Position numbers and translations under genes: made by a program. DNA of 64,000 nt from Myxococcota bacterium (GTDB taxonomy: Bacteria > Myxococcota_A > UBA9160 > PR03), in the NCBI GenBank assembly GCA_041611735.1, contig JBFIML010000002.1, forward strand, positions 32,001 through 96,000. The letters run 5' to 3'. Positions 48,859-58,447 of this stretch are shown piece by piece; within the stretch, counting starts at the first letter, position 1, and each line of letters begins with the position of its first letter. Below the pieces are notes generated by a model. That model saw only the letters and a program-made list of their open reading frames with translations. It did not search any database and was not told the DNA's origin.

Positions 48859-49785
48859 ATGTCGGAGCGAGGCAGCGTGGTCGTGACGGGCAGCACCGGT
48901 TTGGTGGGGAGCCGGCTACTGCCGCTCCTGATCGAGGCGGGCTACGACGTGCGCGCGATCACGCGCGACGCGAAGCGGGCCGCCGGCCGGCTGCCCGGGG
49001 GCGCGCAGGCGGTGGGCTGGGACGGGCTTCACGTGCCGCCCCAGGCCCTGAGCCGGAGCGTCGCCGTGGTCCACCTGGCCGGCGAGCCGATCTTCGCCGG
49101 ACCGCTCACGGCGCGCCGGCGCGAGAAGGTGCGCACGAGCCGGGTGGACTCGACGCGCGCGCTGGTGCAGACGCTCGGGCGTATGGCGGCGGAGGAGCGC
49201 CCGCGCGTCCTCGCGTGCGCCTCAGCGGTGGGCTTCTACGGATCCCGCGGCGAGGAGATCCTCGACGAGTCGGCTCGCGCGGGCCAGGGCTTCCTGGCCG
49301 AACTGTGCGTGGACTGGGAAACGGCGGCACACGATGCGGAGGCGCACGGCATCCGCGTCGTCTCGCTGCGCATCGGGCTCGTGCTGGCGCGCGACGGCGG
49401 CGCCCTCCCGCTCATGGCCCGGGCCTTCCGCCTCGCCCTGGGGGGCCGGATCGGCAGCGGTCGCCAGTGGGTGCCCTGGGTCCACGTGGACGATCTCGTG
49501 CGTCTGGTGCGCACCACCCTGGAAGACGAGCGCCTTGCGGGACCCGTGAACGCCGTCTCCCCGGTTCCCGTACGCAACGAGGAGCTGACCCGCGAGCTGG
49601 CCCGGGCGGTGCACCGACCGGCGATCCTGCCGGTGCCGGCCTTCGCGCTGCGCGCCCTGCTGGGCGACCTGGCTGGCGAGCTGCTGGACAGCCGCCGGGT
49701 GGTACCGCGCCAGGCCGAGGCGCATGGCTTCGGCTTCGGCTACCCGCGCCTCCCCGACGCCCTGGCGGCCGAGCTCGGGAGCTGA
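48859..49785 (+). CDS. TIGR01777/YfcH-like NAD-dependent epimerase
   Basis: TGSTGLVG, HLAGEP, SRVDST, ASAVGFYG, GSGRQWVPWVH. Confidence 0.9.
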   Translation: MSERGSVVVTGSTGLVGSRLLPLLIEAGYDVRAITRDAKRAAGRLPGGAQAVGWDGLHVPPQALSRSVAVVHLAGEPIFAGPLTARRREKVRTSRVDSTRALVQTLGRMAAEERPRVLACASAVGFYGSRGEEILDESARAGQGFLAELCVDWETAAHDAEAHGIRVVSLRIGLVLARDGGALPLMARAFRLALGGRIGSGRQWVPWVHVDDLVRLVRTTLEDERLAGPVNAVSPVPVRNEELTRELARAVHRPAILPVPAFALRALLGDLAGELLDSRRVVPRQAEAHGFGFGYPRLPDALAAELGS

Positions 49786-49791
49786 GGGCCG

Positions 49792-50205
49792 TCAGTCCCC
49801 GGAAGCGTCCGCGGGCGGCGCGAAGACCACCTGGAGCACCGAGCCGACGCTGAGCGCCGCGCTCCCGGGCCCCACGCGGAAGTAGCCCACCGAGATGCTT
49901 GGATCGCCGGCGGCGGGAAACTGTTCGCGGAAGCCCAGCAGCAGGCGCTCCACGATACGCACGGCGGCTTCCGGTTCCACGTCGGCCAGGAACAGCACCG
50001 CCCGCTCGCGCGTCATGCGGAACACCGCATCCTCCACGCGCAGCTCGCTCTCCACGAAGCGCATCACGTCCGGAAACAGCAGATCCCCCTCGGGCGCCGC
50101 GAGGCCCACCACCACCGAGCCGACGGCGTGCTCGCTGGCGAGGTTTCGCAGGCGTCCGAAGAGATCCCACAAACGCCGCGGATCGTCGCTCGTCGTCTCG
50201 CCCAT
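49792..50205 (-). CDS. Stand-alone degenerate GGDEF-like domain protein
   Basis: ELRVEDAVFRMTRERAVLFL...A.RIVERL...SISVG aligns by eye to the GGDEF fold. Confidence 0.55.
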   Translation of the reverse strand: MGETTSDDPRRLWDLFGRLRNLASEHAVGSVVVGLAAPEGDLLFPDVMRFVESELRVEDAVFRMTRERAVLFLADVEPEAAVRIVERLLLGFREQFPAAGDPSISVGYFRVGPGSAALSVGSVLQVVFAPPADASGD

Positions 50206-50283
50206 GGCGGTCGCTCCGCGCATGAACCCTTATCGTCCGCGCCCTGCCCCCCCTTGACGCCTGCAGCCACCGGCGCGGCGCCG

Positions 50284-51039
50284 CTAGCGGCCGGCCTCGC
50301 GCTCGAAGGCCGCCACGGCCACACCCACCGACAGGGCGGCCAGCCCCACGAGGACCAGCGCGCTGCGCAGCGGCGGGATCTCGTGCACACCCAGCAGCCC
50401 GTAGCGCAGCAGGTCGACGCCGTAGGTCAGCGGATTGGCGTGGGCGAGCGCCCGCGACGCGGCCGGCAACGTGGTCACCGGATAGAAGATTCCGGACAGC
50501 AGATACAGGGGGACGGTGGCCAGGGCGGCCAGCAGGCGAAAGGCCTCGAGGCTGCGCAGACGCGCTGCCAGGGCGACGCCCAGCGCCACGAAGCAGGCGG
50601 TCACCCCGAGGATGGCGAGCAGCGCCGCGCCCGGGTGGGCCAGGCCCACGGAGGTGAAGGGAGCGAAGATCGCCAAGAGGACCGTGACCAGGCCGAGCGA
50701 GGCCACCCCGCGCGCCGCGATCTTGCCCAGCACCAGGCCCGTGCGCGAGACCGGCGCCACCACCAGCGCGCGCAGGAAGCCGCTGTCCCGATCCTGGATC
50801 AGGGAGAAGCCGGCACCCACCGCGCCGGAGCCCACCAGGAGCGCCAGCACCCCGGACGCCAGATGCCCCAGATAGTCGGCGCCCGTGGGGAGTCGAACCA
50901 CGTCGTTCAGCCCCAGGCCGAGGAAGAGCACCACCGCCAGCGGGAAGACGAGCTGACCGATCCAGTAGGCGCGGTCGCGGCGGTAGCGCAACATCTCGCG
51001 CCGGAAGATGGTCGCCGCGTCCGTGAGCAGCGTCGTCAC
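50284..51039 (-). CDS. ABC-2 type exporter permease
   Basis: DRDSGFLRALVVAPVSR, LSGIFYP, NPLTYGVD; GTGA coupled. Confidence 0.9.
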   Translation of the reverse strand: MTTLLTDAATIFRREMLRYRRDRAYWIGQLVFPLAVVLFLGLGLNDVVRLPTGADYLGHLASGVLALLVGSGAVGAGFSLIQDRDSGFLRALVVAPVSRTGLVLGKIAARGVASLGLVTVLLAIFAPFTSVGLAHPGAALLAILGVTACFVALGVALAARLRSLEAFRLLAALATVPLYLLSGIFYPVTTLPAASRALAHANPLTYGVDLLRYGLLGVHEIPPLRSALVLVGLAALSVGVAVAAFEREAGR

Positions 51040-52013
51040 GGGGCTTGCTCCGGCTCGAAGGGATGCCCCGTGTGGTGCAGGAAGACGTGCTCCAGGGTGG
51101 GACGCCGGAGCTCCACGGCCCGGATCCCCAAGGGACGCGCGGCCTCCAGGAGCGCCGGCAGGCGCTGGGGCCCGTCGCGCGTCACGATCGCGACGCGCAC
51201 GGGACCCCGCCCGGCGGGCGCGGGCTCCGGGACGACCCGGATCACACCCGGCACGGCGCCGAGGGCCGCCTCCACCCCCTCCCCGCGCTCGAGCTCGAGC
51301 GCCACGCGATCGCCGCCCAGGGCGGCCTTCAGGGCCTCGGGCTCCCCTTCCGTCACGAGCCGCCCGCGGTCGAGGATGCCGATCCGTCCACACAGGGTGT
51401 CGGCCTCCTGCATGGAGTGGGTGGTCAGGAAGAGCGTGGTCCCCCCCTCGGCGTGGACCCGTCGCAGGTGGTCCCAGACCGCCAGGCGGGCCGCCACGTC
51501 GAGCCCGACGGTGGGCTCGTCCAGGAAGAGGACGCGCGGCTGGTGGAGGAGCCCGCGGCCGATCTCGAGCCGGCGGCGCAGCCCCCCGGAGAGCTGCCGG
51601 ACCGGGCGGTCCGCGTCGCGCTCGAGCCCCAGCCACGCCAGGCTCTCCGCCACGCGACGCCTCCGCTCCGGCAGGTGGTAGAGCCGTGCGTGGAGATCGA
51701 GCTGCTCGCGTCCCGTGAGCTCGCGGTCCAGGGTCGGCTCCTGGAACACGATGCCGACCAGACCGCGCACCGCCCCACGCTCCGCCACCACGTCGCGGCC
51801 GAGCACGTGGGCCCCTCCGGCGGTGGGGCGGGTCTGGCTGGTCAGGATCGACACGGTCGTGGTCTTTCCGGCGCCGTTCGGTCCGAGCAGGCCGTAGCAG
51901 GCGCCCTGGGACACGCGGAGGTCGAGGCCGGCCAGGGCGTGCACGCTGCCGTAGCGCTTCTCGAGCCCGCAAGTCTCGAGAGCCGGGACGCGCGTTGTCG
52001 CGGCAGGGGGCAT
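51036..52013 (-). CDS. ABC exporter ATP-binding protein (DrrA-like)
   Basis: GPNGAGKTT, LSGG, LFLDEPTVGLD, TTH. Confidence 0.93.
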   Translation of the reverse strand: MPPAATTRVPALETCGLEKRYGSVHALAGLDLRVSQGACYGLLGPNGAGKTTTVSILTSQTRPTAGGAHVLGRDVVAERGAVRGLVGIVFQEPTLDRELTGREQLDLHARLYHLPERRRRVAESLAWLGLERDADRPVRQLSGGLRRRLEIGRGLLHQPRVLFLDEPTVGLDVAARLAVWDHLRRVHAEGGTTLFLTTHSMQEADTLCGRIGILDRGRLVTEGEPEALKAALGGDRVALELERGEGVEAALGAVPGVIRVVPEPAPAGRGPVRVAIVTRDGPQRLPALLEAARPLGIRAVELRRPTLEHVFLHHTGHPFEPEQAP

Positions 52014-52081
52014 CTTCTACCGTCCGAGCGGGTCGCTGCGCCTGCGGGCGCGGCGGCGAGATCCTACGCAACGGAGCCTCC

Positions 52082-54292
52082 GTGCGCGACACGACCGCAG
52101 CGGACGTCCCGCGCCGCGCGCACCGCCTGGCCCGGGGCTTCGGGGCGCTGGTGGCCCTCACCTTCGGGCTGATCGTGCTCGGTGCGCTGGTGCGCGCCCA
52201 CGATGCCGGCCTGGCCTGCCCCGACTGGCCCCGCTGCTTCGGGGTCTGGGTCCCCGCCATGGACCTGCGCGTCGCCTTCGAGTGGACGCATCGTCTGCTG
52301 GCGGGCAGCGTGGGGGTCGTCTTCCTGGGTCTGGCCGGCCTGGCCCTGCGCGGCAGGGAGACCCGTCGCGCCGTGGGCATCCCGCTGGCGCTGGCCAGCG
52401 TCCTGCTGGTTTCCCAGGTGGTGCTGGGCGGCCTGACGGTGCTCCTCGGCCTCGCGCCCTGGACCGTGACCCTGCACCTGGTGACGGGAAACGCCTTCGC
52501 GGTGACGCTCCTCCTGGTGGCCCTGGGCCTGCGCGAGCAGGCGGCCCCGCGGCTGCGCGGGCCGGTTGCGCCGCGTGTGCAGGGGGCCGTGGTCGTCGTG
52601 GCCGGCCTGCTGGCGCTCCAGATCGTGCTGGGCGGCCTGGTCTCCTCCCACTACGCCGGGCTCGCCTGCCCGGACTGGCCCGCCTGCCACGGCGGGGCCT
52701 GGTTCCCCTCCTGGCAGGGTGCCGTCGGGCTCCACCTGCTGCACCGCAGCAACGGCTACCTGCTGCTGGCGGCCCTGGCCGGCGCCGCCTGGATCGCCCG
52801 CAGGCAGCAGCGCGTGGCACGCCCGCTCCGCCTACTGCTCGCCCTCGCCCTGCTGCAGGTCGCGGTGGGCGTGGCGAACGTGCTGCTGGCGATCCCGGTT
52901 GCGGTGACGGGGCTCCACTCGGCGCTGGCGGCGGCGCTGGTGCTCGGCCTGGGCTGGGGCGCCCGGGAGGCCTGGGCGCGGCCCGCGCCGGCGCCCGCGC
53001 GGCAGCCGCGGGTGGTCGTGGTCGGCGCCGGCTTCGGCGGCCTCGCCCTGGCACGTCGGCTCGCCGACGCACCCGCGGACGTACTCCTGATCGACCGCCA
53101 GAACTTCCACGCCTTCCTTCCGCTGCTCTACCAGGTGGCGACGGCAGGCCTGAGCGTGCAGGACGTGTCGCACCCCGTGAGGGCGATCCTGCGCGGACTG
53201 CCGAACGTGCGCTTCCGCCTGGGGGAGATCGTGGGCGGTGACCTGGAGGCCCGTGTGCTCCAGACCGCTACCGGTGACCGCATCCCCTACGACGTCCTGG
53301 TGCTCGCCGCCGGTAGCACCACGGAGTTCTTCGGCCGGGCCGACGTGGCCCGGCACGCCTTCCGGCTGCACCACGCCGCGGACGCCCTGGAGCTGCGCAA
53401 TCAGGTGCTCTCGGCCCTCGAGCGGGCCGACGTCGAAGCGGACCCCAAGCAGCGCGAGGCCCTGCTCGGCTTCGTGGTGGTGGGGGGCGGGCCCACGGGA
53501 GTCGAGCTGGCGGGCATGCTCGCCGAGCTGCGCCAGCACGTGCTGCCCCGGGACTTCCCCGGCATCGCCGCCGACATGCGCGTCGTCCTGGTGGAGGGTG
53601 GGGAGCGCCTGCTCCCCGCCCTGCCGGCGGGGCTGTCCCGACGCGCGCTGGAGCAGATGCGCGAGCTCGGGGCGGACGTTCGTCTCGACGCCTTCGTGGA
53701 GGCCGTGGACCCGGACGGGGTGCGTCTGCGGGGCGGCGAGCGGCTTTCGGCTCGCACGACGGTGTGGGCCGCTGGCGTGCGCGGGGCCGGTCTGGCCGCG
53801 GCCCTGGGCCTGCCGACCGACCGGCGCGGACGCGTCGCCGTGGGATCCACCCTGGAGGTGGCGGGGCGCCCGGACGTGTACGTGATCGGGGACCTGGCAT
53901 GCGCGGAGGGGCAGGCGTCGATCCCGCAGGTGGCGCCGGCAGCCATCCAGCAGGGACAGCTCGTGGCGGACAACCTGAAGCGCCGCGTGCTCGGCCGGCC
54001 CCCCGTGGCCTTCCGCTACCAGGACCTGGGCACCATGGCCACGATCGGGCGCAACCGCGCCGTCGCCCACCTGATGGGCCTCGAGATCGCGGGCCGGCTG
54101 GCATGGTGGGCCTGGCTGCTGGTGCACCTGGTGAAGCTGGTGGGGTTCCGCAACCGTCTCGTCGTGTTCGTGAACTGGATCTATCACTACTTCAGCTACG
54201 ACCTGGAGCTGCGGGCGGTGGTGGGGCCCGAGGCCCGGGCGCCCCGGTCGGAAGAATCCGCCGCAGCCGCGCGGCACGCAACCCAGCGATGA
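52082..54292 (+). CDS. Fusion: heme A synthase (CtaA/Cox15) + type II NADH dehydrogenase (NDH-2)
   Basis: N-half: GLACPDWP twice, EWTHR, LHL, LLHR, GLHS, about 8 TM helices. C-half from about 53000: VVVVGAGFGG, PLLYQVATAG, VVVGGGPTGVELAG, VIGD, FRYQDLGTMATIG. No stop between the halves. Confidence 0.88.
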   Translation: MRDTTAADVPRRAHRLARGFGALVALTFGLIVLGALVRAHDAGLACPDWPRCFGVWVPAMDLRVAFEWTHRLLAGSVGVVFLGLAGLALRGRETRRAVGIPLALASVLLVSQVVLGGLTVLLGLAPWTVTLHLVTGNAFAVTLLLVALGLREQAAPRLRGPVAPRVQGAVVVVAGLLALQIVLGGLVSSHYAGLACPDWPACHGGAWFPSWQGAVGLHLLHRSNGYLLLAALAGAAWIARRQQRVARPLRLLLALALLQVAVGVANVLLAIPVAVTGLHSALAAALVLGLGWGAREAWARPAPAPARQPRVVVVGAGFGGLALARRLADAPADVLLIDRQNFHAFLPLLYQVATAGLSVQDVSHPVRAILRGLPNVRFRLGEIVGGDLEARVLQTATGDRIPYDVLVLAAGSTTEFFGRADVARHAFRLHHAADALELRNQVLSALERADVEADPKQREALLGFVVVGGGPTGVELAGMLAELRQHVLPRDFPGIAADMRVVLVEGGERLLPALPAGLSRRALEQMRELGADVRLDAFVEAVDPDGVRLRGGERLSARTTVWAAGVRGAGLAAALGLPTDRRGRVAVGSTLEVAGRPDVYVIGDLACAEGQASIPQVAPAAIQQGQLVADNLKRRVLGRPPVAFRYQDLGTMATIGRNRAVAHLMGLEIAGRLAWWAWLLVHLVKLVGFRNRLVVFVNWIYHYFSYDLELRAVVGPEARAPRSEESAAAARHATQR

Positions 54293-54308
54293 GCTACAAC
54301 CAGCCGCC

Positions 54309-54791
54309 ATGCGCGCCTGGCAGATCTTCGCGGGCATGTCGCCGGAGCAGGTCCAGGCGTGGTGCCGGCGCCTGGCGGACGAGTCACCGCCCGCCTTCGC
54401 CCAGGCGCTGGCCGCGGCCGCGGCGCTCTTGAAGGCGCGGCCGGTCTACGTGCGCAAGCTCCCCTTCGAACGTCGCGCGGAGCTGGTGCGTCGCGCCCTG
54501 GCCCGGGTGGCAGCCAACGACCTGGCCGAGGAGATACTGGCCAGCTACTTCCTGGACTGCCGGCGCGAGCTGCTCGAGGAATGGCTCGACGCGGTGGGCG
54601 TCGAACACGAGGATGGGATGCTCAAGAGCGATGCGCCGGCCGCGCCCGCCAAGAGGAAGCTCGACGCGGCGGTGAAGCGCTTCCGGGCCGGCGGCGGCGA
54701 CACGGACAGCAGCGACCGCGAGCTCCTGCTGCGCACCTTTGCGGCCCAGCGCGCCATCGAATGGCCGGACCTCGACGCCCTGCTGGCCTGA
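54309..54791 (+). CDS. Hypothetical helical protein
   Basis: Protein-like ORF directly after the fusion gene (WLDAVGVEHEDG). Confidence 0.65.
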   Translation: MRAWQIFAGMSPEQVQAWCRRLADESPPAFAQALAAAAALLKARPVYVRKLPFERRAELVRRALARVAANDLAEEILASYFLDCRRELLEEWLDAVGVEHEDGMLKSDAPAAPAKRKLDAAVKRFRAGGGDTDSSDRELLLRTFAAQRAIEWPDLDALLA

Positions 54792-54797
54792 CGCCCG

Positions 54798-54823
54798 GGC
54801 CTCGCCGGGGAGCCGGCGAGGCC
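54798..54823. terminator. Hairpin between convergent genes
   Basis: GGCCTCGCCGG-GGAG-CCGGCGAGGCC, 11-bp perfect stem. Confidence 0.55.
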
Positions 54824-54827
54824 GGCC

Positions 54828-55682
54828 TCACGAGCCCAGAGTGATGGCAGCGTTGCTGATGACCGGCGACTGGCGCTCCCGGGTCTGCGCCGCCAGCAGG
54901 ATGCGGTCGCCCTCCTCCCAGAGCGAGGTCACGACCGTCTCGCCCGGGAAGACGACGCCCGCGAAGCGGGCCTGGTAGCGCGCTACCCGCGCCACGTCCC
55001 CGCCCAGCACCTGGTCCACCACCGCCTTGCACACGATCCCGAACGAGCACAGCCCGTGCAGGATGGGTCGGTCGAAACCGCCGAGCTTGGCGAAGTCCGG
55101 GTCGGCGTGGAGCGGGTTCTTGTCGCCCGAGAGGCGGTAGAGGAGCGCCTGCTGGGGCAAGGTGGGCGACTCCACCACCCGGTCCGGCTTCCGCTCCGGT
55201 GGCTGGTTGCCGGCCTTCGGCCCCGCCTCCCCGCCGAAGCCACCTTCGCCGCGCAGGAAGATGGAGGAGCGGTTCGTGAACAGCTTCTTCCCGGAGTCGT
55301 TCCGGGTCTCCACCTCGACGACCACGAGCGCGGCCTTTCCCTTGTCGTAGACCCCGGCGATGCGGCCGGCGCTCTGCACCCGGGCCTGGGTCGGGATCGG
55401 ACCGAACAGCTCGATGTCCTGCTCGCCGTGCAGCAGCAGGGCCGGATTGAACTGCAGCCCGGGCACACCCAGGATGCCCCCCATGGCGGGAAAGGCGGGG
55501 ATCACCCCGTAGCTCGGCATCACCCGGAGGCTCTTCTCGTAGGTGAGGGCCAGCTCGCCCGGCTCGGTGGGCGGGTTCCCGGCCCCGATGCCCAGGTGGT
55601 AGAGGATCACGCGGTCCGGGTCCCACTGGTACGGGACCGGCGGAAGCTCCGCTCCGAGCGCCTTGTGCGGATCGATCGGCAT
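54828..55682 (-). CDS. (R)-specific enoyl-CoA hydratase 2 (double hot-dog MaoC)
   Basis: ILYHLGIGA, LLHGEQ, YRLSGDKNPLHADP..A...F.RPILHGLC, VFPGET. Confidence 0.9.
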   Translation of the reverse strand: MPIDPHKALGAELPPVPYQWDPDRVILYHLGIGAGNPPTEPGELALTYEKSLRVMPSYGVIPAFPAMGGILGVPGLQFNPALLLHGEQDIELFGPIPTQARVQSAGRIAGVYDKGKAALVVVEVETRNDSGKKLFTNRSSIFLRGEGGFGGEAGPKAGNQPPERKPDRVVESPTLPQQALLYRLSGDKNPLHADPDFAKLGGFDRPILHGLCSFGIVCKAVVDQVLGGDVARVARYQARFAGVVFPGETVVTSLWEEGDRILLAAQTRERQSPVISNAAITLGS

Positions 55683-56684: not shown

Positions 56685-57812
56685 CTAGCCGGCCGAGGCC
56701 ATCTCCTTGAAGGCCCGACCGATCTTCTTGCGGCCGCGATTGATCTCCCGGAGCTCGGCCATGGCCGCGTCGGCGATGTCCTCGCCGGCGACCCACTCGC
56801 CCTCGCGCGCGAGCTCGCCCATGTCCACCCAGGCGGCGTAGAGGGGACGGGTCCGCTCGGTGATGATGCCGGCGTTGGCCAGCGTCTTGATCAGCACCCG
56901 GAAGATGTTGGTACTCTGCCGCATGAGCCGGCGGCGATCCTCGTCGGTGAAGGCCTCCTGGACCGCGCTCCGCACCCACTGCCAGTCGAGCCCGAACTGC
57001 GGGTAGAGTGCCTGCTTCTGTTCCGCGTTGACGAGGTTGTTGAAGACCCGGTGGAAGCAGTGGGCCGCCCAGTCCTCGACCTTCACGTGCTCCTCTTCGG
57101 TCAGCTTGGGAACGGTGCGGTTGGCCCAGATGCGCCCGAAGCGGTGGTGGAAGGCCTCATCGGTCATGACGAGCTGCACCACGCGGCGCAACAGCGGGTC
57201 GTTGGTCCGGGAGTGGAGGGTGGCGAAGGCGCCCATGGCGAGCCCCTCGATGAGCATCTGCATGCCCACCAGCTTCTTGTACACCTGCGGAGCCTCCACG
57301 ATCTCGACCATGAGCTCCCGCAGCGTCCGGCCCGCCTCGATCGGGGTGCCCCAGCGGGCCTGGATGTAGCGCGAGAAGGCGGTCACGTGGCGCGCCTCCT
57401 CCCGCACCTGGTTGGCGGCGTACTCCTGGGCGCCCGGGTCGTAGAGCACGTCGCACAGGCTCGCCGAGAGCGAGAGCGCGCCCTGCTCTCCGTGCAGGAT
57501 CTGGGAGAGGTTGAAGCGCGTCACCTCGTTGGCGAGACGGATCTTCTGGCCCTCGTCGAGGCGATCCGCCACCGCGCAGTTGAGCTCCACCACGAAGTCG
57601 CGCGGCATCAAGGTCTCGTTGGCGACGTCGAAGGGCTGCTGGAAGTCCACGTAGCTCGGGTCGTTCGGATCCCAGAAGTGGTCCACGGTGGCCGAGATGA
57701 TCTCGTCGAAGGCGCCCGTACGCCGCGCGTAGCGCTCCACCTCGATCATCGAGGCGAAATCGTCGGGAGCGACGGTGTCGTAGATCGGATCGTGGGTGAT
57801 GTGATCAGCCAT
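56685..57812 (-). CDS. Ferritin-like diiron protein
   Basis: LHGEQGAL, EEARH, IEGLAM, DEAFHH. Confidence 0.82.
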   Translation of the reverse strand: MADHITHDPIYDTVAPDDFASMIEVERYARRTGAFDEIISATVDHFWDPNDPSYVDFQQPFDVANETLMPRDFVVELNCAVADRLDEGQKIRLANEVTRFNLSQILHGEQGALSLSASLCDVLYDPGAQEYAANQVREEARHVTAFSRYIQARWGTPIEAGRTLRELMVEIVEAPQVYKKLVGMQMLIEGLAMGAFATLHSRTNDPLLRRVVQLVMTDEAFHHRFGRIWANRTVPKLTEEEHVKVEDWAAHCFHRVFNNLVNAEQKQALYPQFGLDWQWVRSAVQEAFTDEDRRRLMRQSTNIFRVLIKTLANAGIITERTRPLYAAWVDMGELAREGEWVAGEDIADAAMAELREINRGRKKIGRAFKEMASAG

Positions 57813-57838
57813 GGCTCTCGCGTCTCCTCCTGACGGCT

Positions 57839-58447
57839 TCAGGCCGCGGCCAGCGGATGCAGCCGCACCAGGGTGTCTACCACCGCCTCGCGGGGGGCGC
57901 GGGTGGGATCCTCCACCCACCACGCCACCACGCGGGTCCACATGGCCACCAGCGCCCGGGCGGCCACGGCCGGGTCGAGACCCGGCGCCAGCGCCCCCGC
58001 CTCGAGCCGCTCGCGCAGGCGGGCTTCGACCCCCGGCAGCAGCTCGTCCACCACCGCCTCGCCGAGATCGGGAGCCTCCGGGCCGCGCCCGAACAGGACC
58101 TGCACGAGGCTGCGGTTCTCCTCGGCGAAGGCCACCAGCTCGGCGGTCGACGCGTGCAGGACAGCGGCCGGATCGGCGCCGGCCGCGCGCCGGGCCCGCT
58201 CCATGCGAGCACGCAGGCGTCCCAGGGCATCGAAGACGATCTCCCGGAACAGCTCGCGCTTGTCCCGGAAGTGGAGGTAGTAGGTTCCCGCGGCGACCCC
58301 GGCGCGACGGGCGATCTGCACGGTGGTGGTGCGGTGCAGGCCCTGGCGGGCGAACAGCTCGGTGCCCGCATCGACCAGACGCCTGCGCGTCTCGAGGCGG
58401 CTGCGACCGGGGGCGGTGGCGGGGTCGCGGGGGAGGGTGATTCTCAT
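57839..58447 (-). CDS. TetR/AcrR family regulator
   Basis: RRRLVDAGTELFARQG...QIARRAGVAAGTYYLHFRDK. Confidence 0.92.
   Translation of the reverse strand: MRITLPRDPATAPGRSRLETRRRLVDAGTELFARQGLHRTTTVQIARRAGVAAGTYYLHFRDKRELFREIVFDALGRLRARMERARRAAGADPAAVLHASTAELVAFAEENRSLVQVLFGRGPEAPDLGEAVVDELLPGVEARLRERLEAGALAPGLDPAVAARALVAMWTRVVAWWVEDPTRAPREAVVDTLVRLHPLAAA

Follow-up and report, generated by a model that had tools for sequence, protein, structure and literature searches.

A single gene on the forward strand at positions 52082..54292 of the 64,000-nt stretch of DNA analyzed in this study (the window) encodes, in one reading frame, a heme A synthase (CtaA) and a type II NADH:quinone oxidoreductase (NDH-2), both complete and joined by an 11-residue linker; this arrangement was confirmed. 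The reading that we prefer, with a probability of roughly 0.45, is that both modules are active and that the NDH-2 module is a built-in reductase that draws on NADH to support heme A synthesis.

The fusion gene and its surroundings

The open frame containing the gene spans 51995..54292 on the forward strand and would encode 765 amino acids from a TTG codon. The earlier note placed the start at a GTG at 52082, giving 736 amino acids, and database protein P0002 is an identical 736-residue protein with the same start. A divergent ABC-transporter gene on the opposite strand starts at 52013. The features discussed below are as follows.

52072..52075, forward strand: likely ribosome-binding site GGAG, read directly, 5 nt upstream of the GTG start
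52082..54292, forward strand: ctaA-ndh fusion gene, 736 codons plus a TGA stop (open reading frame, Pfam, identical P0002)
52082..52975, forward strand: heme A synthase module, residues 1-298, eight transmembrane helices, class B / type 1B (Pfam, 6a2j match, AF2)
52976..53008, forward strand: linker ARPAPAPARQP, residues 299-309, from transmembrane helix 8 to the first Rossmann strand (sequence)
53009..54289, forward strand: type II NADH:quinone oxidoreductase module, residues 310-736 (Pfam, 9mqy, Foldseek)
53024-53041, forward strand: FAD motif GxGxxG, residues 315-320 (sequence)
53483-53500, forward strand: NADH motif GxGxxG, residues 468-473 (sequence)
about 54026-54190, forward strand: NDH2_C C-terminal membrane helices (Pfam)
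54309..54791, forward strand: orf160, a conserved all-helical protein of 160 amino acids, 16 nt past the stop of the fusion gene

The CtaA module was recognized by PF02628 (COX15-CtaA) at 145.8 bits against a cut-off of 29.9 (residues 52-317 in the 765-residue numbering), and the fusion protein scored 146.8 bits with the same family in the genome-wide search. The Bacillus subtilis heme A synthase structure 6a2j matched the module with an E value of 2e-9, and H70 and E67 align to its sequence. Helices were predicted by AF2 at residues 8-39, 62-90, 92-121, 126-154, 164-189, 213-238, 243-269 and 272-298. Both CPDWPxC loops are present (C46/C52 and C196/C202), as are E67-x-x-H70-R71 and then H132, H221 and H279, and none of these cysteine, glutamate, histidine and arginine residues varies among the 49 fused proteins. 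In B. subtilis CtaA, we take H60, H123, H216 and H278 to be the heme-ligand histidines; its conserved glutamate is given as E57 in PMC7140478. According to PMC12808453, class B / type 1B heme A synthases are defined by a cysteine pair in both periplasmic loops, and the module carries such pairs in both L1 and L5. The alphaproteobacterial type 2 equivalog NF045570 scored only 39.6 bits against a cut-off of 550, a result below threshold that is expected because the synthase of the fusion is of type 1.

The NDH-2 module matched PF07992 (Pyr_redox_2; 153 bits against a cut-off of 26.1, residues 339-654), PF00070 (51 bits) and PF22366 (NDH2_C; 41.4 bits against 27.7, residues 678-732), with the residues again in the 765-residue numbering. 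Mycobacterial NDH-2 (9mqy) matched residues 301-718 with an E value of 2.3e-81 in an alignment that passes through the C-terminal helices, and the best Foldseek matches of the fusion were NDH-2 structures. The glycines of both Rossmann motifs (G315, G317, G320, G468, G470 and G473) are invariant in the fused modules, as are E475, E505, D604, Q623, Q624 and G625. The motif AQxAxQ, presumably the NDH-2 quinone site, was found in 45 of 49 fused proteins, while the window's protein and three others have APxAxQ; residue 619 of the window's protein is thus Pro at a position where Gln occurs in 45 of 49. Homology to known NDH-2 enzymes suggests that the module is an NADH:quinone oxidoreductase with non-covalent FAD. 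Both halves of the fusion are under purifying selection, and no catalytic residue varies.

The ctaA/ndh junction is free of stops, frameshifts and anything resembling a Shine-Dalgarno motif. H279 and G315 are 35 residues apart in 41 of the 49 fused proteins (34 in five and 39-40 in three), the motif REAWLRPV is conserved in the linker region, and the AF2 pLDDT around the junction is 92 for residues 291-300 and 77 for residues 301-310. The earlier note had described one uninterrupted frame of about 736 codons, a complete-looking CtaA half, a short PAPAPAR linker, an NDH-2 with both GxGxxG motifs and C-terminal helices, and the lack of an obvious ribosome-binding site at the junction, and its description agrees with the present results on each of these points.

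The window comes from an uncultured marine Myxococcota bacterium. The genome is 95% complete and encodes a heme O synthase, CtaB (320 bits against a cut-off of 246), and a CtaD-like, A-family oxidase subunit I; given these two genes, it appears to need heme A, and this context supports the likely conversion of heme O to heme A by the CtaA module. No second CtaA and no second true NDH-2 were found in this genome, making the fusion the sole one of each, and complex I (NuoH) is present for bulk NADH oxidation. A scan of positions 51900-55000 returned no promoter or terminator, where the consensus may not fit a genome of 74% G+C. No terminator-like site lies between the fusion gene and orf160, and the two are probably co-transcribed. 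The orf160 gene was present in each of 41 genomes from the order, and in most of them it follows ctaA directly. Its product had no Pfam or NCBIfam match and matched only 'hypothetical protein' clusters in the Atlas (0.89 or below). Its AF2 model has a pLDDT of 94, and no fold match was found by Foldseek (best E 2.6) or VIA-align (best Z 4.9, none at least 5).

Distribution and origin of the fusion

Of 16 genomes from this family, 14 carry the same CtaA-NDH-2 architecture. Among the matches listed, there were 50 full-length two-domain clusters from NCBI, JGI, ENA and Logan with identities of 59-100%, and both Pfam families were carried by 56 of the 120 matches listed. Further fused loci were identified in 10 named MAG records and in 11 JGI or other metagenome contigs, and the gene occurs in marine and sediment habitats. 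Contigs from four public runs cover the fusion, and no indel occurs in any of them. In run X1, possibly the source sample, a 2235-nt contig covers 52082-53534 with no differences; in run X5, which belongs to a different study, one contig covers 52160-53013 with no differences and a second continues from 53012, but position 53012 is not bridged by one contig with 31 letters on each side. This unbridged position aside, nothing was found in favor of a decaying pseudogene or of an artefact of assembly or gene calling. Such explanations are already contradicted by the in-frame architecture across the family and the four sequence sources, the additional MAG and metagenome loci, the indel-free runs and the invariant catalytic residues, and we consider that there is practically no chance of their being correct. 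A stop or frameshift at the junction and a one-off artefact, which the earlier note had named as possible refutations, are likewise excluded by the intact sequence, relatives and contigs and by the conservation of the fusion across the clade.

Beyond this clade, no CtaA-NDH-2 fusion was found in the library search, among the long CtaA proteins listed or at CtaA loci from other phyla, where NDH-2 was present in the flanks (up to 3 kb) of none of 65 loci. The whole-library search listed 33 relatives longer than 530 amino acids, 30 of which were scanned with Pfam. Many library proteins of 680-740 amino acids resemble distant CtaA-NDH-2 fusions; CtaA was identified by Pfam in none of the 30. In the three left out of the scan (P0162, P0168 and P0210), NDH-2 begins at residues 14-35, leaving no space for CtaA. 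The fused partners recognized among the 30 scanned long NDH-2 relatives were DoxX (12), FTR1 (one), an Na/Ca exchanger (one) and DUF3891 (one). Of the 120 long CtaA proteins listed, 52 were CtaA-CtaB fusions. The CtaA-NDH-2 fusion is narrow and confined to one family of uncultured Myxococcota; the earlier proposal of a Rosetta-stone fusion was correct in that the in-frame fusion is real, but it does not extend to a widespread link between the two proteins. A literature search found no published CtaA-NDH-2 fusion, and the author of the earlier note knew of none; the partners of the 'fusion proteins' excluded in PMC12808453 may be named in its supplementary tables, which this search did not cover.

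The usual arrangement in the order is a ctaA-orf160 pair. In a sister genus in the order, g19 (G036 and G028), the genes are ctaA, a separate ndh and orf160 in that order, with the ctaA stop abutting the ndh start, and the ndh product is 61% identical to the fused NDH-2. This arrangement represents a precursor state of the fusion, which could have arisen by insertion of ndh between ctaA and orf160 followed by loss of the ctaA stop codon. In genus g5 of the same family (G004 and G008; 91% and 87% complete), orf160 lies directly behind ctaA and a heme-copper oxidase is encoded, and no true NDH-2 was found in either genome (the best match is partial, with 34% identity). The CtaA tree (36 rows) supports the family clade at 89/87 and the monophyly of the fused proteins at only 59/44; it puts g5 inside the family clade at a position without firm support, and g19 is not sister to the family. 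Genus g5 may either have lost NDH-2 or never had it, as the tree fits both. Outside the family, an NDH-2-like match at E <= 1e-20 was absent from 9 of 23 CtaA-bearing relatives, and NDH-2 at an identity of at least 44% was found in only 10 of 24 relatives. Seven stand-alone NDH-2 clusters (P0056-P0062) share a clade with the 49 fused modules (SH-aLRT 99), and neither ctaA nor orf160 was found within 2.5 kb of three stand-alone loci of this type.

This distribution bears on the possibility that the chain holds two independent enzymes, encoded by neighboring operon genes that were fused through stop-codon loss. CtaA would then use the generic donor of other bacterial CtaAs, NDH-2 would simply provide the cell with an alternative NADH:quinone oxidoreductase, and the fusion would be kept because it is harmless or merely aids co-expression and membrane placement. 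Such independence fits the presence of CtaA without NDH-2 in many relatives, including g5, the grouping of an unlinked stand-alone NDH-2 lineage with the fused clade, and the fusion of NDH-2 to DoxX, FTR1, the Na/Ca exchanger and DUF3891. In addition, because the genome has no other true NDH-2, any general NDH-2 role must fall to the fused one. However, a bulk respiratory dehydrogenase would then be tied 1:1 to a biosynthetic enzyme despite the presence of complex I, and there is no clear gain in anchoring, since NDH-2 retains its own C-terminal membrane helices and does not depend on CtaA as an anchor. The fusion has also survived divergence to 59% identity, the genes were coupled stop-to-start already before fusion, as in g19, and a purely neutral tether would need neither a linker of fixed length nor a conserved motif within it.

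Predicted topology and the proposed electron route

AF2 modeled the whole fusion chain with a pTM of 0.77, a mean pLDDT of 78.3 and an ordered junction, and the confidence for the entire chain is a further point against independence. When the halves were modeled as separate chains, the ipSAE was 0.33 (runs of 0.32, 0.33 and 0.33) compared to 0.00 for the best of three controls, a score for which the interface tool returned 'weak support' and which lies in a band labeled as more often wrong than right. Among 80 solved complexes, 58 attained the tool's mark, as did 2 of 110 mismatched pairs; at 0.60 or under, it was reached by only 7 of the 80 solved complexes but by both mismatches. The runs shared at least 86% of contacts, with a partner pLDDT of at least 82. 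Lys and Arg make up 18 of 68 residues on inside-facing segments but only 3 of 79 on outside-facing segments, a bias that places the C-terminus and NDH-2 in the cytoplasm. The CtaA part is thus predicted to be N-in/C-in, with its eight helices arranged as two four-helix halves and NDH-2 on the cytoplasmic face. Dimers are the usual form of NDH-2 enzymes. Heme A synthase, in contrast, is described as a trimer (PMC7327177).

The four heme-ligand histidines are 6-8 residues from the periplasmic helix ends, in the outer leaflet, and 17-22 residues from the cytoplasmic helix ends, which corresponds to about 25-33 Å at 1.5 Å per residue when the FAD-heme separation is judged from helix positions. The limit for electron tunneling is about 14 Å, so transfer in one step from a cytoplasmic FAD to the heme would be too far. 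This distance and the weak predicted interface both favor two independent enzymes, which we regard as quite possible, if not the reading that we prefer.

Under the preferred reading of a built-in reductase, NADH would reduce the FAD of the NDH-2 module, which would then reduce a membrane quinone at the NDH-2 quinone site on the cytoplasmic membrane surface. The quinol formed beside CtaA would reduce the CtaA heme b cofactor in the outer leaflet, and heme b would activate O2 for conversion of the C8 methyl of heme O into the formyl of heme A. Coupling would probably occur by local supply of quinol rather than by direct FAD-to-heme tunneling, and the fusion may represent an optional, lineage-specific improvement rather than a universal requirement of bacterial CtaA. 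The fixed linker, the invariant catalytic residues, the pTM of the whole chain and an interface that is weak yet above controls are points for coupling, while CtaA without NDH-2 in many relatives, the stand-alone NDH-2 lineage, the other fusions of NDH-2 and the outer-leaflet hemes are points against it. Also counting against the built-in reductase are the Pro at residue 619, the lack of NDH-2 beside CtaA in other phyla, the band in which the interface score lies and the mismatch between trimer and dimer. A dedicated NAD(H)- or quinone-linked electron route, as proposed in the earlier note, is in line with the conservation of the linker, with the operon seen as a precursor and with the use of ferredoxin in eukaryotes; it is weakened by the first four opposing points, and is plausible but unproven. 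The stronger proposal, that NADH, FAD, membrane quinone and heme b form a complete path on one chain and make the protein a natural self-sufficient heme A synthase, seems doubtful.

It is also conceivable, although rather improbable, that the NDH-2 module serves a role other than feeding catalysis. It might tune heme A synthesis to the redox state of NADH/NAD+ or quinone, maintain the proper redox state of the ECL cysteine pairs or of the iron in heme O/A, or limit reactive oxygen species from the O2-activating heme b. The module appears to be an intact NADH- and FAD-binding enzyme, CtaA is reported to activate O2 at a heme (PMC13213658), and a lineage-specific, optional link is what would be expected of an accessory or regulatory add-on. 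However, the cysteine pairs and hemes are periplasmic, away from NDH-2, and the sequence offers nothing to tell such a role from plain electron supply.

Significance and comparison with known systems

To our knowledge, the physiological electron donor of bacterial heme A synthase is unsettled, and we know of no NADH-driven assay with the purified enzyme. The fusion offers a candidate route from NADH through quinol to heme b on a single protein. If the self-sufficient synthase were real, quinol would be the long-sought physiological reductant for type 1 heme A synthases of bacteria generally, with the fusion merely localizing its supply; the protein would allow heme O to heme A conversion, driven by NADH, to be reconstituted in vitro for the first time, and NDH-2 would be a portable electron-input module for membrane enzymes that need reductant (CtaA, DoxX and FTR1). 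If the halves are independent, the case still documents the passage from a tight operon to a fusion and the proneness of NDH-2 to fuse with membrane proteins.

Compared to B. subtilis CtaA (6a2j), the CtaA part has the same eight helices in two halves, cysteine pairs in both periplasmic loops, ExxHR glutamate and four heme-ligand histidines; it differs in its 438-residue C-terminal extension (linker and NDH-2), and overall similarity is low, as the E value above indicates. The NDH-2 part shares two GxGxxG Rossmann domains and a C-terminal membrane-binding domain with mycobacterial Ndh (9mqy/9mqz) and the enzymes of Staphylococcus aureus (5na1) and C. thermarum (4nwz). Unlike these, it is attached through its N-terminus to a polytopic heme enzyme and, in the window's copy, Pro replaces the first Gln of the quinone-site motif.

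The redox module of the Myxococcota fusion is C-terminal and lies on the N-side of the membrane, and the ferredoxin part of Schizosaccharomyces pombe Etp1 is also C-terminal. Etp1 is described as a ferredoxin/Cox15 fusion (PMC11408685), and mitochondrial Cox15 is reported to require O2 together with external electrons, delivered by ferredoxin and ferredoxin reductase (PMC13213658; PMC7140478). As in Etp1 and the yeast system of Cox15, Yah1 and Arh1, a redox protein of an NAD(P)H-to-synthase route is found on the synthase chain (PMC11408685; PMC7140478). In contrast to those systems, the partner is a quinone-reducing FAD flavoprotein instead of a [2Fe-2S] ferredoxin, the host is a bacterium and the synthase is of type 1 rather than type 2. 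No ferredoxin domain was found among the Pfam matches of the fusion chain, and the domain content indicates an analogue of the Etp1 type rather than a member of it.

CtaB is the common known fusion partner of CtaA, and CtaA-CtaB fusions are mentioned in PMC9145763 and PMC12808453. Whereas CtaA-CtaB joins successive enzymes of a pathway, CtaA-NDH-2 joins an enzyme to a candidate supplier of reductant. As in DoxX-NDH-2 and its kin, NDH-2 lies C-terminal to a polytopic membrane domain some 250-320 residues long, but the N-terminal partner in those proteins is a different one and is CtaA in none of them.

Integrity and distribution of the fused gene

An open frame on the forward strand spans 51995 to 54292, and the GTG at 52082, with GGAG 5 nt upstream, is the start that yields 736 residues. 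Pfam domains of both halves score above their cut-offs (COX15-CtaA, 145.8 bits; Pyr_redox_2, 153 bits; Pyr_redox; NDH2_C, 41.4 bits), and the DNA at the CtaA/NDH-2 junction holds no stop, frameshift or Shine-Dalgarno-like motif, so both the single uninterrupted frame and the lack of an obvious ribosome-binding site there, as described in an earlier note, hold. The identical 736-aa protein occurs on 12 database contigs (P0002). Contigs covering the gene from four public sequencing runs contain no inserted or deleted letters, which supplies the sequence support across the junction that the note had sought. One 2235-nt contig from run X1, possibly the source sample, covers 52082-53534 and crosses the junction with 0 differences; in X5, a separate study, one contig covers 52160-53013 and a second continues from 53012, with 0 differences each. 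No single X5 contig bridging 53012 by 31 letters on both sides was found, probably because the Rossmann motif there is common to other metagenome genes. That the fusion is an artefact is exceedingly improbable.

Nor is the architecture a one-off, the other point raised for checking. A length-matched search with the fusion protein gave 2475 matches; among the 120 listed, 56 carry PF02628 and PF07992 on the same protein, and 50 of these are full-length fused proteins (701-781 aa, 59-100% identity; from NCBI, JGI, ENA and Logan). The fused gene lies in one open frame in 14 of the 16 same-family genomes among 40 relatives compared; the fusion also occurs in 11 of 15 metagenome loci and in 10 named MAG records, labelled Myxococcota, Deltaproteobacteria, Proteobacteria and Spirochaetales, the last label being probably wrong. 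P0015 was the sole protein matching both halves among the matches listed from 1.84 billion 50%-identity representatives, and CtaA was absent from all 30 longer NDH-2 relatives scanned. When the CtaA part alone was searched among proteins of 404-1288 aa, the 120 listed comprised 51 CtaA-NDH-2, 52 CtaA-heme O synthase, 14 with CtaA only and 3 of other kinds; all 51 share at least 52% identity with the CtaA part of the query and therefore belong to the window protein's own clade. Around 65 CtaA loci belonging to other phyla, the flanks (up to 3 kb) contained no NDH-2. The fusion is real, had a single or nearly single origin and, in these searches, is restricted to a single family of uncultured Myxococcota from marine and sediment metagenomes.

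Gene neighbourhood and history

Genes around the fusion (window coordinates; g19, sister genus; g5, genus inside the family)
48859-49785, +, NAD-dependent epimerase with DUF1731, kept upstream of ctaA in the family and g19 (loci L022, L023, L024)
49792-50223, -, 143-aa protein with a faint GGDEF-like match, kept upstream of ctaA in the family and g19 (L022, L023, L024)
50284-52013, -, ABC-2 permease and ATPase pair, divergent from ctaA, in the window and genomes G028 and G004
52082-54292, +, ctaA-ndh fusion gene
54309-54791, +, orf160, 160-aa all-helical protein
56685-57941, -, 418-aa ORF, weak diiron oxygenase family matches only (AurF E 5e-6, under its cut-off)

Starting 16 nt 3' of the fusion, orf160 has a single-copy homologue in each of 41 genomes from the order, usually placed directly downstream of ctaA, of the fusion or, in g19, of ndh. 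It begins at most about 110 nt 3' of the CtaA match in 12 of 22 relatives outside both the family and g19; one genome, G019, has orf160 and no CtaA. The protein belongs to no Pfam or NCBIfam family, and its confident AF2 model (pLDDT 94, pTM 0.87) matches no solved structure (Foldseek best E 2.6; VIA-align best Z 4.9). We regard it as a candidate for a hitherto unknown accessory of heme A synthesis. At three loci (G031:C118, G030:C245, G018:C317), 0.8-1.3 kb separates the CtaA match from orf160, room for a ~400-aa gene, with no NDH-2 match reported there.

In g19 (G036, G028) the order is ctaA, ndh, orf160, the ctaA stop abutting the ndh start, and the ndh product is 61% identical to the fused NDH-2 module. 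In g5 (G004, G008) orf160 lies directly behind ctaA with no NDH-2 module between, and on either side the locus has the same ABC transporter and SDR genes as the window. These gene orders indicate that ndh was inserted into a ctaA-orf160 pair before fusing with ctaA. On the CtaA tree, fused and g5 sequences group together (support 89/87), a result compatible with either loss or original absence of the module in g5. In the NDH-2 tree, 49 fused modules and seven stand-alone clusters form one clade (SH-aLRT 99), and its sister clade (96) contains the g19 type; neither ctaA nor orf160 was found near stand-alone-type NDH-2 at 3 loci.

Function of the two modules

Conservation was scored on an alignment of 49 fused proteins. 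Invariant are, in the CtaA half, both Cys pairs (C46/C52, C196/C202), E67, H70, R71, H132, H221 and H279, and, in the NDH-2 half, both GxGxxG motifs, E475, E505, D604 and Q623-Q624-G625; by these residues both halves look functional. The earlier description of a complete-looking CtaA (Cys loops, ExxHR, three other His) joined to an NDH-2 with both Rossmann motifs and C-terminal membrane helices is thereby borne out, the strong match to mycobacterial NDH-2 9mqy (E 2.3e-81) running through those helices; Foldseek agrees with the NDH-2 assignment. The CtaA half matches B. subtilis heme A synthase (HAS) 6a2j weakly (E 2e-9) and is type 1B / class B under the scheme in the available text of PMC12808453. 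Residue 619 (window 53936-53938), the first Gln of the AQxAxQ quinone-site motif in 45 of 49 fused proteins, is Pro in the window's protein, as in g19 stand-alone NDH-2s.

The window's genome (4.09 Mb, 95% complete) contains no second CtaA and no further NDH2_C match, and the closest NDH-2-module paralogue is a flavoprotein at only 29% identity. Genes for heme O synthase (320 bits, above cut-off) and a CtaD/CoxA-like subunit I (589 bits; this family scored best, under the equivalog cut-off of 670) are present, so heme A is needed, and with no other CtaA the fusion gene would have to make it. NuoH is encoded, so complex I can oxidise NADH. A second, more distant COX1-family gene (G000:C48:8527-9888, +, locus L004; 188 bits), which may be of oxidase or NO-reductase type, is located 5 kb away from the gene for the A-family subunit I.

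Our tentative reading, with a probability of about 0.45, is that the NDH-2 module supplies CtaA locally, electrons passing from NADH to quinol at the NDH-2 module and on to heme b in the CtaA module. In its favour are the conserved fusion, the fixed linker length (35 residues between H279 and G315 in 41 of the 49), the precursor operon in which stop and start abut, the need of heme A synthesis for reductant plus O2, the precedent of the Cox15-ferredoxin fusion Etp1, and the 1:1 tie between a biosynthetic enzyme and what would be a bulk dehydrogenase, despite complex I; NDH-2 also has its own membrane helices and therefore needs no anchoring by CtaA. However, outside the family 9 of 23 relatives with CtaA gave no NDH-2-like match, g5 has an oxidase yet no NDH-2, a stand-alone NDH-2 lineage exists, and NDH-2 is also fused to DoxX, FTR1 and others. 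It is quite possible that the chain simply carries two independent enzymes; a regulatory or protective role for the NDH-2 module is improbable.

Geometry bears on the same choice. The AF2 model of the whole chain, built from the 49-sequence alignment (mean pLDDT 78.3, pTM 0.77), has eight helices, the last of which (TM8) ends at 298; an ordered linker follows, and the first strand occupies 310-314. Lys and Arg make up 18/68 residues on inside-facing versus 3/79 on outside-facing segments, which by the positive-inside rule places both termini, and hence NDH-2, in the cytoplasm. On their helices, the four heme histidines are 6-8 residues away from the periplasmic end and 17-22 from the cytoplasmic one. 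Direct FAD-to-heme transfer is therefore unlikely, and the link would plausibly be a quinone/quinol relay; the distance counts against coupling. So does the weak interface score: with the halves run as separate chains against 3 controls, ipSAE was 0.33 (best control 0.00; verdict 'weak support'), with at least 86% of contacts shared between runs and a partner pLDDT of at least 82. Of 80 solved complexes 58 reached the mark, as did 2 of 110 mismatches; only 7 of the 80, but both mismatches, did so at 0.60 or below.

Comparison with known systems

A full-text literature search found no description of a CtaA-NDH-2 fusion, and it is absent from the available text of the HAS surveys PMC9145763 and PMC12808453; the latter, from 2026, left 'fusion proteins' out of its alignments, and its main text names only a heme O synthase fusion. 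Supplements of that survey aside, the architecture is, as the earlier note supposed, undescribed within the literature searched, and database entries carry generic names ('COX15/CtaA family protein', 'NADH dehydrogenase'). It is a new domain architecture from two well-known families.

Other membrane domains, too, often precede NDH-2 in fused proteins: DoxX-NDH-2, for which no paper was found in the literature search, occurs in many separate 50%-identity clusters, and FTR1-NDH-2, Na/Ca-exchanger-NDH-2, DUF3891-NDH-2 and NDH-2 followed by a cyclic-nucleotide-binding domain were also seen (fusion proteins noted: P0143, P0149, P0151, P0158, P0179, P0198, P0199, P0200, P0204, P0209, P0212, P0233; P0139; P0182; P0132; P0136).

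For S. pombe, the available text of a 2020 review (PMC7140478, section 3.3.2) gives 'Yah1 and Arh1' as a tandem fusion, in conflict with that of a 2024 paper (PMC11408685), followed here, in which Etp1 is a ferredoxin/Cox15 fusion. Etp1 is analogous to the CtaA-NDH-2 fusion, but its partner is not homologous; mitochondrial matrix ferredoxin and Cox15 pose the same topological puzzle as cytoplasmic NDH-2 and CtaA.
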